Part shown: piece after piece, positions 53,834 to 56,215 of the stretch
How positions within the stretch are numbered: the first letter of the stretch is position 1
How the letters are laid out: each line of letters opens with the position of its first letter
Assembly: GCF_003334315.1 (NCBI RefSeq)
Contig: NZ_QOWR01000016.1
Length of the DNA: 64,000 nt
Strand: one strand, 5' to 3'
Source of the DNA: Escherichia coli
GTDB lineage: Bacteria > Pseudomonadota > Gammaproteobacteria > Enterobacterales > Enterobacteriaceae
Program-made: the position numbers and the translations under genes
Notes under the pieces: generated by a model
Database searches by the model: none
Told to the model about the DNA's origin: nothing
What the model saw: the letters and a program-made list of their open reading frames with translations, nothing else

Positions 53834-53848
53834 TTCTTGCGAGTTTCA

Positions 53849-53878
53849 GAAAAGGGGGCCTGAGTGGCCCCTTTTTTC
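53849..53878 (+). terminator. rpsO intrinsic terminator
   Basis: aaaa gggggcc tgagt ggcccc tttttt. Confidence 0.75.
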
Positions 53879-54079
53879 AAGCTGACGGCAGCAATTCACT
53901 GGAAACTAATGTATTGTTGCTATGAATGATCTTCCGTTGCAGAGGTTCGCGCGGCTAATGAGAGGCTTTACCCACATAGAGCTGGGTTAGGGTTGTCATT
54001 AGTCGCGAGGATGCGCAGAAGATCGGGTATTAACACCAGTGCCGTAAGGTACTGTCTAAGAAAGAGAAAGGATATTACA

Positions 54080-56215
54080 TTGCTTAATCCGATCGTTCGT
54101 AAATTCCAGTACGGCCAACACACCGTGACTCTGGAAACCGGCATGATGGCTCGTCAGGCTACTGCCGCTGTTATGGTTAGCATGGATGACACCGCGGTAT
54201 TCGTTACCGTTGTTGGCCAGAAAAAAGCCAAACCAGGTCAGGACTTCTTCCCACTGACCGTTAACTATCAGGAGCGTACCTACGCTGCTGGTCGTATCCC
54301 GGGTAGCTTCTTCCGTCGTGAAGGCCGCCCAAGCGAAGGCGAAACCCTGATCGCGCGTCTGATTGACCGCCCGATTCGCCCGCTGTTCCCGGAAGGCTTC
54401 GTCAACGAAGTTCAGGTTATCGCCACCGTGGTTTCTGTTAACCCGCAAGTTAACCCGGATATCGTCGCGATGATTGGTGCTTCCGCAGCGCTGTCTCTGT
54501 CTGGTATTCCGTTCAATGGCCCGATTGGTGCTGCCCGCGTAGGTTACATCAATGACCAGTACGTACTGAACCCGACTCAGGACGAGCTGAAAGAGAGCAA
54601 ACTGGATCTGGTTGTTGCCGGTACTGAAGCCGCTGTACTGATGGTTGAATCTGAAGCTCAACTGCTGAGCGAAGACCAGATGCTGGGCGCAGTAGTGTTC
54701 GGTCATGAACAACAGCAGGTTGTTATTCAGAACATCAATGAACTGGTGAAAGAAGCCGGTAAACCGCGTTGGGACTGGCAGCCGGAGCCGGTAAACGAAG
54801 CGCTAAACGCGCGCGTTGCTGCACTGGCTGAAGCTCGCCTGAGCGATGCTTACCGCATCACCGACAAACAAGAGCGTTATGCGCAGGTTGATGTCATCAA
54901 ATCTGAAACCATCGCGACGCTGCTTGCTGAAGACGAAACCCTGGACGAAAACGAACTGGGTGAAATTCTGCACGCGATCGAGAAAAACGTTGTTCGTAGC
55001 CGCGTACTGGCAGGCGAACCGCGTATCGACGGTCGTGAAAAAGATATGATCCGTGGTCTGGATGTGCGTACTGGCGTGCTGCCGCGTACTCACGGTTCTG
55101 CGCTGTTCACCCGTGGTGAAACGCAGGCGCTGGTTACCGCAACGCTGGGTACTGCTCGTGACGCGCAGGTTCTTGATGAACTGATGGGCGAGCGTACCGA
55201 TACCTTCCTGTTCCACTACAACTTCCCTCCGTACTCCGTAGGCGAAACCGGCATGGTCGGTTCTCCGAAGCGTCGTGAAATTGGTCACGGTCGTCTGGCG
55301 AAGCGCGGCGTGCTGGCAGTCATGCCGGATATGGACAAATTCCCGTACACCGTACGTGTTGTGTCTGAAATCACTGAATCCAACGGTTCCTCTTCTATGG
55401 CTTCCGTGTGCGGCGCGTCTCTGGCGCTGATGGACGCAGGTGTGCCGATCAAAGCTGCCGTTGCGGGTATCGCAATGGGTCTGGTGAAAGAAGGCGACAA
55501 CTACGTTGTACTGTCTGACATTTTGGGCGACGAAGATCACCTGGGCGATATGGACTTCAAAGTTGCAGGTTCCCGCGACGGTATCTCTGCACTGCAGATG
55601 GATATCAAAATTGAAGGTATCACCAAAGAGATCATGCAGGTTGCGCTGAACCAGGCTAAAGGTGCGCGTCTGCATATCCTGGGCGTAATGGAACAGGCGA
55701 TCAACGCGCCGCGTGGCGATATCTCTGAGTTCGCACCGCGTATCCATACCATCAAGATCAACCCGGACAAGATCAAAGATGTTATCGGTAAAGGCGGTTC
55801 TGTAATCCGTGCTCTGACCGAAGAAACTGGCACCACCATCGAAATCGAAGATGACGGTACTGTGAAGATTGCAGCGACCGACGGCGAGAAAGCGAAACAT
55901 GCTATTCGTCGTATCGAAGAGATCACTGCAGAAATCGAAGTGGGCCGCGTCTACACTGGTAAAGTGACCCGTATCGTTGACTTTGGCGCATTTGTTGCCA
56001 TCGGCGGCGGTAAAGAAGGTCTGGTCCACATCTCTCAAATCGCTGACAAACGCGTTGAGAAAGTGACCGATTACCTGCAGATGGGTCAGGAAGTACCGGT
56101 GAAAGTTCTGGAAGTTGATCGCCAGGGCCGTATCCGTCTGAGCATTAAAGAAGCGACTGAGCAGTCTCAACCTGCTGCAGCACCGGAAGCTCCGGCTGCT
56201 GAACAGGGCGAGTAA
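54080..56215 (+). CDS. pnp: polynucleotide phosphorylase
   Basis: Track ORF 53993..56215 (740 aa); start set to TTG 54080 ([14 protein letters not shown]..., 711 aa) with AAAGGA 6 nt upstream; C-terminal KH/S1 region. Confidence 0.93.

Follow-up and report, generated by a model that had tools for sequence, protein, structure and literature searches.

The rpsO-pnp intergenic region of Escherichia coli: a conserved leader hairpin of pnp and the antisense RNA SraG

The window analysed here is a stretch of 64,000 nucleotides of E. coli DNA, and this report concerns the part of it in which rpsO is followed by pnp on the same strand. Over 53540-54120 the sequence matches E. coli K-12 MG1655 with 100% identity, and a genome search found the spacer sequence in every one of the 5,426 complete E. 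coli genomes. The K-12 RefSeq annotation carries rpsO, the ncRNA sraG and pnp at the mapped coordinates. The interval is almost certainly the rpsO-pnp intergenic control region of E. coli, and no evidence contradicts this identification. Among the matches listed, the automated PGAP RefSeq records have pnp, rpsO and truB under the match, and sraG is absent from them. The spacer is a classic example of post-transcriptional control in E. coli. Its elements have all been described and annotated before in a well-studied system, and the finding is an ordinary one with small weight as a discovery. The features are collected in Table 1.

Table 1. Positions of the features in and around the rpsO-pnp spacer, numbered from the first nucleotide of the window
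Feature	Position	Strand	Details
S15 autoregulatory leader, 5' of rpsO	53506-53620		Rfam RF00114, 117.6 bits
rpsO CDS, ribosomal protein S15, 89 aa	53564..53833	+	ORF list, RefSeq K-12 annotation
Bidirectional Rho-independent terminator	53850..53877	both	AAAAGGGGGCC-TGAGT-GGCCCCTTTTTT
SraG (b4449), cis-antisense sRNA, 216-nt primary transcript	53850..54065	-	K-12 annotation 3311183..3311398
pnp promoter P2 region	53885..53925	+	candidate -10 TATTGT at 53912-53917
Small conserved hairpin	53888..53920	+	GCAGCAAU / AUUGUUGC, 8 bp including one G.U
Long interrupted hairpin R of the pnp 5' UTR	53928..54024	+	37 pairs, 8-nt apical loop 53975-53982
Second small pnp leader hairpin	54037..54054	+	CAGUGCC-GUAA-GGUACUG, between R and the Shine-Dalgarno
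pnp Shine-Dalgarno	54067..54072	+	AAAGGA, 7 nt 5' of the start codon
SraG promoter	54072..54103	-	-10 region TGTAATAT (54079..54072); candidate -35 TTTACG (54103..54098)
pnp CDS, PNPase, 711 aa	54080..56215	+	start TTG 54080-54082; RefSeq NP_417633.4

Conservation was followed within one order, using E. coli and 51 other Enterobacterales (52 sequences in all). BLAST of the spacer against Aeromonas, Alteromonadales and Burkholderiales loci gave no match save a marginal one in an Idiomarina MAG (31 nt, E about 3e-4), the sole match from a non-Enterobacterales locus.

The rpsO stop codon, TAA, is read at 53831-53833. A terminator had been placed at 53849-53878 by the first-pass annotation and is found there, with the sequence GAAAAGGGGGCCTGAGTGGCCCCTTTTTTC and a + strand fold of -20.0 kcal/mol (z = -3.1). 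On this strand the hairpin of T1 begins 17 nt past the rpsO stop and has the form of an intrinsic terminator, with 12 consecutive base pairs (six G-C, extended by A-U) and a 5-nt loop, followed by UUUUUU. The - strand fold of the element is -15.7 kcal/mol, and the 3' end of SraG reads GGGGCCACUCAGGCCCC followed by CUUUUCU, which is likewise a Rho-independent terminator. The terminator scan listed the - strand site but not its + strand twin. The Rfam SraG model and the annotated sraG both end at 53850, and rpsO T1 and the SraG terminator are described as one element by Fontaine et al. 2016 (PMC5029454). The terminator is real and works in both directions, ending rpsO transcription (T1) on the + strand and SraG on the - strand.

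A consensus promoter scan of 53400-54300 returned a single promoter, the P1-like site of rpsO at 53427-53455. It reported neither P2 of pnp nor the SraG promoter, so that these two promoters were positioned from published work and by reading the sequence by eye. Published RNase III sites lie at +39 and +77 from P2, and an in vitro RNA of 234 nt ends at nucleotide 79 of the ORF (PMC5029454). Back-calculation from these sites and from the RNA length would put the P2 transcription start at 53922-53925, the two calculations differing by 2-3 nt (53922-53923 versus 53925). In the alignment, the block AAACTAATGTATTGTTGCT of the P2 region is kept in most Enterobacteriaceae and Erwiniaceae. The small conserved hairpin follows the terminator and precedes the long hairpin R, overlapping the P2 region. 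Its cells are paired in 84% of cases, against at most 65% in slid controls; compensatory changes occur in 20 cells, a number that 0 of 500 shuffles equalled, and its G.U pair is kept in 37 of the 47 scored sequences.

Translation of pnp had been assigned to a UUG at 54080, and this start holds. RefSeq uses it on the identical sequence, and the codon is TTG in 52/52 Enterobacterales. The motif AAAGGA also lies upstream as described, at a spacing of 7 nt (54073-54079) rather than the 6 nt given for it, and AAGGA is kept across the 52 aligned sequences. A 30S toeprint has been reported at 15 nt from the UUG, and one CsrA site overlaps the Shine-Dalgarno (PMC5029454). The frame upstream of the start is unconserved: going upstream from the TTG, 31 of the 52 sequences reach a stop without meeting another in-frame start, and 37 of the 52 have an in-frame stop no more than 23 codons away. 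The frame is open in E. coli from 53993 into pnp, with an ATG at 54011 standing 23 codons before the TTG, but a start at that ATG (734 aa) or at TTG 53993 (the 740-aa mechanical ORF), which would turn the leader after the hairpin into coding sequence, is next to inconceivable and was rejected on the unconserved frame among the 52 Enterobacterales, on the location of both candidates within the 3' arm of the RNase III hairpin, on indels between hairpin and TTG that are not multiples of three, and on the invariant TTG with its AAGGA, which the RefSeq start and the toeprint both share. For annotation, this means that the mechanical ORF over-extends pnp into the leader hairpin.

The pnp leader had been described as a 12-bp helix closing a loop of about 34 nt. 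The helix is where it was put, with arms CGCGGCTAATGA (53950-53961) and TCATTAGTCGCG (53996-54007); as read from the sequence, it has 11 Watson-Crick pairs and one G.U, and 34 nt are enclosed. The loop is actually paired, 53963-53974 with 53983-53994, which leaves an apical loop of 8 nt. The stem also extends below the helix to 53928/54024, making the helix the core of a 37-bp interrupted hairpin, R, whose upper 26 bp are broken only by 1x1 mismatches and small internal loops. Folding of the leader predicts the long stem. The 76-nt core has a minimum free energy (MFE) of -36.0 kcal/mol versus -19.6 +/- 2.9 kcal/mol for shuffles (z = -5.6, 0/200 as good), and the whole leader 53922-54095 reaches -61.8 kcal/mol (z = -4.5). 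The leader fold exceeds chance expectation.

Conservation bears on how much of this stem is real. The 12-bp helix is invariant across Enterobacterales and is the sole perfectly conserved part, a point in favour of a mere 12-bp helix closing an open 34-nt loop, with no long double-stranded substrate for RNase III. Such a structure is very improbable. In the MFE and centroid structures alike, the enclosed 34 nt form 10 further base pairs around the 8-nt loop, and the stem reaches its full length; the segments above and below the helix vary in sequence, and compensatory changes keep them paired. On these folds and changes the 12-bp stem with a large open loop was rejected. Over the 52 sequences, 86.6% of the cells of hairpin R are paired, compared with at most 46% in slid controls, and 25 pairs show compensatory double changes (0/500 shuffles as high); at one such pair, 29 sequences have G-C and 20 have A-U. 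The preferred structure is the long hairpin R, whose outer segments covary.

Hairpin R also distinguishes the two strands. In 52/52 Enterobacterales sequences its fold on the pnp strand is the more stable one, with a mean advantage of 16 kcal/mol across species. It contains 1-10 G.U pairs on the sense strand versus 0-2 on the antisense strand, and in E. coli the core reaches -36.0 kcal/mol (sense) versus -21.2 kcal/mol (antisense). These comparisons indicate that the hairpin structure is under selection on the pnp strand. The second small hairpin, at 54037..54054, has a fold of -10.9 kcal/mol (z = -3.6) on the + strand and -5.9 kcal/mol (z = -0.55) on the - strand. Compensatory changes are seen in 6 of its 7 pairs, with 65% of cells paired in a gappy alignment.

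The first-pass annotation, which saw the central 12 bp only, took the leader stem as the site of RNase III autoregulatory cleavage of pnp, and the literature supports this (PMC5029454, PMC3082872). The stem figures as an RNase III substrate in the pnp autoregulation literature, to the extent that it is summarised in PMC5029454; in vivo, pnp mRNA is up in an rnc mutant, with a change at the intercistronic site (PMC3082872). A largely double-stranded hairpin of at least some two helical turns is looked for in such a leader; the one found here, with 37 pairs, fits this, lies in the pnp 5' UTR and is evolutionarily kept on the mRNA strand. By back-calculation, RNase III would cut near 53960-53964 and 53998-54002. 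The sense-strand pnp leader has no family of its own in Rfam, where it is represented only via its antisense image, SraG.

The presence of SraG opposite the rpsO-pnp spacer, which had been put forward with uncertainty, is borne out by an Rfam match, the curated K-12 annotation and published transcript mapping. In the Rfam scan, RF00082 (SraG) matches 54021..53850 on the - strand with 164.3 bits against a threshold of 50 (E = 4e-31), over model positions 1-177 of 177, which is the full length. The match lies between rpsO and pnp, both of which are on the + strand. The rpsO-SraG-pnp arrangement is the same in 16/16 Enterobacterales loci, and RF00082 scores above threshold in all 16 and in 0/3 loci outside the order. 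The Rfam match alone is no proof of a - strand transcript, because the model mirrors the conserved sense-strand leader and the bidirectional terminator. For the transcript itself, SraG has been detected in the K-12 strains MG1655 and N3433; its transcription start was mapped by circular RT-PCR, the 5' end carries a triphosphate, and a -10 mutation abolishes the transcript (PMC5029454). The mapped start, 54065, is 42-44 nt upstream of the older annotation and of the Rfam model start, and the RF00082 match, with its end at 54021, under-reports the SraG 5' end by 44 nt. SraG extends from 2 nt short of the pnp Shine-Dalgarno to the shared terminator at its 3' end. A 58-aa ORF on the - strand (53968..54144) begins upstream of the SraG start and overlaps pnp codons; it was treated as a chance ORF.

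The SraG promoter, which could not be pinned down in the first-pass annotation, is placed at the pnp start region. The -10-like TGTAATAT lies at a fitting distance from the mapped 54065, with TAATAT at -12..-7, although consensus scoring alone calls no promoter there. The spacer from the candidate -35 TTTACG to TGTAAT is 18 nt. The promoter covers the stretch between the pnp Shine-Dalgarno and the start codon, the TTG itself and pnp codons 1-8 and, for annotation, sits over the pnp start codon; the -10 has been described as near the pnp Shine-Dalgarno without overlapping it (PMC5029454). A second antisense promoter was predicted 339 nt upstream of the SraG promoter (PMC5029454). No consensus promoter match is found near 54404, the spot of this prediction.

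About 20 of the 52 sequences have a good homologous antisense -10 (AATAAT, TGTAAT or AATTAT); in the rest it is weak (e.g. AAAATT). It is weak in about half of the Enterobacterales genera sampled, a point that is only mildly new. A good antisense -10 is provided by the motif GGATATTAT, which is found again in Citrobacter, Yersinia, Photorhabdus, Pectobacterium and Brenneria.

Whether SraG has been kept as an antisense regulator has to be weighed against the reading that the - strand signal mainly mirrors sense elements. These would be the pnp leader hairpin and the rpsO terminator; the transcript would be a minor by-product of an AT-rich sequence at the pnp start that resembles a promoter, unselected as a regulator. 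The strand bias of hairpin R in every sequence, the second hairpin that is significant on the + strand only, and the patchy -10 all speak for it. The candidate -35 lies inside conserved pnp codons, so that its conservation is uninformative. The phenotype is also small, since mutating the SraG promoter increases pnp mRNA and PNPase about 1.3-fold, a modest effect, and no other SraG targets were found by Fontaine et al. 2016 (PMC5029454). Against it stands the behaviour of SraG in K-12, whose sequence is identical here. The RNA is detected with a mapped 5' triphosphate end, the -10 mutation that abolishes it increases pnp mRNA and PNPase, and full-length SraG blocks 30S binding in an in vitro toeprint (PMC5029454). 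In addition, SraG has been reported with a target in Yersinia pseudotuberculosis (PMC5029454), and the good antisense -10 motif recurs in distant genera. That the transcript is an unselected by-product is unlikely, and SraG as an antisense regulator of pnp is the reading retained for E. coli.

A separate question is what the conservation of RF00082 reflects. We suggest tentatively, and at somewhat less than even chance, that its conservation across Enterobacterales stems from the opposite strand, that is, from the pnp leader hairpin, the P2 hairpin and the rpsO terminator, the antisense promoter being competent in only some lineages. If this is true, E. coli and some of its relatives would have a genuine SraG sRNA, many genomes would carry no more than a mirror-image annotation, and the sense-strand pnp leader would be the conserved functional RNA. 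With the structure selected on the pnp strand and the antisense -10 patchily conserved, RF00082 matches in other genera call for caution as evidence of an expressed sRNA.

The pieces fit together in one scheme, for which the literature supplies the cutting by RNase III, what PNPase, RNase E and CsrA do, and the transcript ends and effects of SraG. On the + strand, rpsO transcripts would stop at the terminator 53850-53877 or read through it, and pnp would also be transcribed from its own promoter P2 just past the terminator. Both kinds of pnp mRNA bear the long imperfect leader hairpin 53928-54024. RNase III would cleave both of its arms, and PNPase would next strip the short upstream strand left paired with the leader. 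The processed pnp mRNA would be within reach of RNase E and of CsrA, which represses its translation, and PNPase would thereby limit its own synthesis. Translation begins at the weak UUG (54080), 7 nt past AAAGGA. On the - strand, the promoter within the pnp start region would fire at 54065 to make the 216-nt antisense SraG, which would end at the same terminator, read oppositely. Through a perfect duplex with the pnp leader that stops 2 nt short of the Shine-Dalgarno, SraG would block 30S binding and make extra RNase III sites, and pnp expression would go modestly down. Our own analysis adds to this scheme that the sequence equals that of K-12, that the RNA elements fold and are conserved with covarying pairs, that the fold favours the pnp strand, that Rfam recognises SraG and that the TTG is invariant; just where P2 starts and RNase III cuts is inferred.

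Compared with known systems, the antisense RNA is the SraG (PsrO; b4449) of E. coli K-12, RF00082, with the same sequence, position, strand and terminator and no detectable difference. The references for it are Argaman et al. 2001, as cited in PMC5029454, and Fontaine et al. 2016 (PMC5029454). RliD of Listeria monocytogenes lies between pnpA and rpsO like SraG, without high sequence similarity to it, and in Enterococcus faecalis the RNA ref41 comes from the strand opposite pnpA; regulation of pnp by RliD or ref41 is uninvestigated according to the same paper (PMC5029454). On the sense strand, the leader is that of the RNase III-dependent autoregulation of E. coli pnp, identical in sequence and with its hairpin past the rpsO terminator, and no difference was found. 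RNase III cutting of 5'-UTR hairpins controls mRNA stability elsewhere too, as in the leader of the rnc operon, where a long hairpin is cut and the fate of the downstream mRNA altered. Unlike the rnc leader, the pnp leader has an input from a second enzyme, PNPase, which degrades the paired strand after the cut, and has an antisense RNA superimposed on it.

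Between 53540 and 54120 the sequence is that of E. coli K-12 MG1655, base for base, and the published findings used here were obtained on this identical sequence. Every one of the 5,426 complete E. coli genomes gave a match to a 1-kb query around the rpsO-pnp spacer, with an identity of at least 99% in 5,404. One of the 5,426 had no place covering at least 80% of the query; a few genomes had two places, and one place was on a plasmid. In the listed PGAP-annotated E. coli records the matching stretch carries pnp, rpsO and truB alone, with no sraG. The curated MG1655 record differs, with rpsO, the ncRNA sraG (b4449, 3311183..3311398) and pnp on the same stretch. 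With base 1 of pnp set at 54080, these coordinates convert to 54065..53850 on the minus strand, 216 nt. The Rfam matches above threshold near the spacer are two, SraG and the S15 leader. SraG, an antisense RNA that the first-pass annotation named with uncertainty, is confirmed by its Rfam match, by the K-12 entry and by published transcript mapping. The other elements named there also lie in the sequence where it put them, including the rpsO terminator, a G+C-rich hairpin followed by six T at 53849-53878, and its overall interpretation is supported.

Coordinates of features in and around the rpsO-pnp spacer, and of other RNA features of the window
Feature	Position	Strand	Basis
SraG RF00082	54021..53850	-	Rfam, 164.3 bits; gathering score 50
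S15 leader RF00114	53506-53620	+	Rfam match above threshold
rpsO stop TAA	53831-53833	+	read from sequence
pnp Shine-Dalgarno AAAGGA	54067-54072	+	sequence
SraG -10 region TGTAATAT	54079..54072	-	sequence; TAATAT at -12..-7 of mapped start
SraG candidate -35 TTTACG	54103..54098	-	18-nt spacing to TGTAAT; 9/12 consensus matches
ArcZ sRNA	14563-14670	-	RNA feature found in window
greA leader	36316-36437	+	RNA feature found in window
tRNA-Leu(GAG)	43090-43176	+	RNA feature found in window
tRNA-Met(CAT)	46959-47035	+	RNA feature found in window
rimP leader	47124-47224	+	RNA feature found in window
naRNA4, REP-derived element downstream of infB-rbfA region	51923-51993	+	RNA feature found in window

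The pnp leader was described earlier as a 12-bp stem enclosing a loop of about 34 nt. The stem is present: CGCGGCTAATGA (53950-53961) is complementary to TCATTAGTCGCG (53996-54007) over 12 pairs, one of them G.U. The loop is not open, as RNA folding pairs those 34 nt into 10 more bp around an 8-nt apical loop. The stem extends downward too, giving an interrupted hairpin of 37 pairs from 53928 to 54024, in which paired positions sum to 107957. The 76-nt core folds at -36.0 kcal/mol versus -19.6 +/- 2.9 for dinucleotide shuffles (z = -5.6, 0/200 as good); the structure is far beyond chance expectation.

Scanning a single genome from each species, with pnp codons 9-17 as the anchor, yielded 120 loci, 51 of them from Enterobacterales. 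All 51 resemble the E. coli spacer, most strongly over the hairpin, and outside the order one marginal short match was the only similarity among the 120. An alignment of 52 leaders shows near-invariance of the central helix with its flanking stretches (TTCGCGCGGCTAATGAGA ... TGTCATTAGTCGCGAGGATG) and variation in the outer and apical segments; 50 sequences keep the G.U pair of the helix, and 2 have A-U there. The E. coli structure pairs 86.6% of the alignment cells, versus 38-46% with slid partners. Compensatory changes occur at 25 of 44 pairs (0/500 shuffles as good), with the structure taken from one of the aligned sequences and shuffles that ignore phylogeny. Despite these caveats, double changes stand out clearly in the variable segments, one pair being G-C in 29 of the leaders and A-U in 20.

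Two segments, 53947-53964 and 53993-54013, are invariant in sequence and not in structure alone across the 52 Enterobacterales, and the conserved G.U lies within them. Because the helix and flanks are held in sequence, protein recognition is suggested. The invariant 3′ arm holds the motif GAGGATG (54007-54013), whose GGA could be the second CsrA site, the one exposed after processing. The leader of Dickeya oryzae has an extra stretch of about 40-50 nt in the apical part of the hairpin (columns ~151-200 of the alignment, A2), missing from the other 51 sequences. In Enterobacter sp. BIGb0383, Kluyvera and Pseudocitrobacter (L023, L042, L074) similarity to the E. coli spacer falls into two pieces; ~110 additional nt separate the rpsO terminator region from the P2/hairpin region, which suggests an insertion.

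In all 52 sequences the pnp strand gives the hairpin region a more stable fold than the SraG strand does, by 16 kcal/mol on average, and G.U pairs number 1-10 in the sense fold and 0-2 in the antisense fold. For the E. coli core the plus strand reaches -36.0 kcal/mol (z = -5.6) and the minus strand -21.2 kcal/mol (z = -3.4), and a small second hairpin (54037-54054) is significant on the plus strand only. The structure is thus under selection in the pnp mRNA. A weaker mirror hairpin is still open to SraG, and the RNase III cuts published in SraG, at mirror positions, fit it.

RNase III leaves a 2-nt 3′ overhang. Combined with the pairing sum and the two published cleavage sites, at +39 and +77 relative to the P2 start (PMC5029454), this would place the cuts near 53960/61 and 53998/99, apparently at the top of the invariant helix, and P2 +1 at 53922-53923. 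The in vitro pnp RNA of 234 nt, ending at ORF nt 79 (PMC5029454), would put +1 at 53925. Since the two back-calculations disagree, we give ranges, 53922-53925 for the probable P2 +1 and 53960-53964 and 53998-54002 for the probable cuts. Cleavage leads to loss of the processed 5′ end, which depends on PNPase, to attack by RNase E and to repression by CsrA, which has one site overlapping the pnp Shine-Dalgarno sequence (PMC5029454). Independently, Stead et al. (PMC3082872) found pnp mRNA raised in an rnc mutant, with a change at the intercistronic site.

Two promoters serve pnp (PMC5029454): P1, through read-through transcripts, and P2, which lies beyond the rpsO terminator T1. T1 doubles as the SraG terminator (Fontaine et al. 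2016, PMC5029454). A consensus promoter scan of the region reported neither P2 nor the SraG promoter; its only site, TTGCGA-17-TAGAAT (53427-53455, plus strand), immediately precedes the S15 leader, ~100 nt ahead of the rpsO ATG, and fits the rpsO P1 promoter. Between T1 and the RNase III hairpin, overlapping the P2 -10 region, is a small inverted repeat, GCAGCAAT / ATTGTTGC (53888-53920, plus strand; 8 bp including G.U). It is kept in Enterobacterales (84% of cells paired; slid controls reach at most 65%); some changes are compensatory, and the G.U is mostly conserved. Its hairpin would be restricted to read-through rpsO-pnp transcripts.

The primary SraG transcript is 216 nt long, and its start lies 42 nt upstream of the one in the older annotation; mutating the -10 eliminates the transcript, and pnp mRNA and PNPase rise ~1.3-fold (PMC5029454). 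The 30S toeprint at the UUG is blocked by full-length SraG but not by the form lacking the first 42 nt, and the SraG-pnp duplex gains new RNase III cuts (PMC5029454). The minus strand at the promoter reads 5′-GGAATTTACGAACGATCGGATTAAGCAATGTAATATCCTTTCT-3′, the mapped start being the T of 54065, 2 nt from AAAGGA (54067). From the -10 and -35 positions, the candidate promoter overlies the pnp Shine-Dalgarno-to-start spacer, the TTG and codons 1-8. A longer antisense transcript is predicted near 54404 (PMC5029454); a search around that position gave no consensus promoter. A 58-aa ATG ORF on the SraG strand (53968-54144), starting inside pnp codons and upstream of the SraG transcription start, was treated as a chance ORF.

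RF00082 scored 83-162 bits in 16/16 Enterobacterales loci tested, always opposite pnp, and gave no score in the Aeromonas, Zobellella and Glaciecola loci. These matches do not show expression, because the model is the mirror of the pnp leader and terminator. A good hexamer at the homologue of the E. coli -10 occurs in about 20 of 52 sequences: AATAAT in 13, AATTAT in 4, and TGTAAT/TAATAT in E. coli, E. albertii and Rahnella. Many homologues are weak (e.g., AAAATT), including those of Enterobacter, Kosakonia, Siccibacter and Erwinia; the candidate -35 falls in conserved pnp codons, which makes its conservation uninformative. The patchy -10 leaves room for SraG expression in only part of the order, a tentative reading that we would not yet favor, and the only mildly new point of the analysis.

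The proposed TTG start of pnp at 54080 is present, and pnp starts with TTG in all 52 sequences; its distance from AAAGGA, put at 6 nt, is 7 nt by count. A mechanical ORF runs upstream to TTG 53993 (740 aa), with ATG 54011 (734 aa) also within the hairpin, and a gene caller could choose either. Both were rejected, as they are not conserved in other genera, 31/52 sequences have no other in-frame start between the nearest upstream stop and the TTG, and 37/52 have an in-frame stop at most 23 codons upstream.

The other RNA features in the table (ArcZ, the greA and rimP leaders, naRNA4 and two tRNAs) are all expected in this part of the E. coli chromosome. The rpsO-pnp locus is already known in detail, so its novelty is nil and its interest low. 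To the known system the analysis adds the precise positions of SraG and its promoter and the whole span of the RNase III hairpin. It also corrects the spacer length, rejects the upstream ORF extension, and offers comparative evidence placing the conserved structure on the pnp strand.
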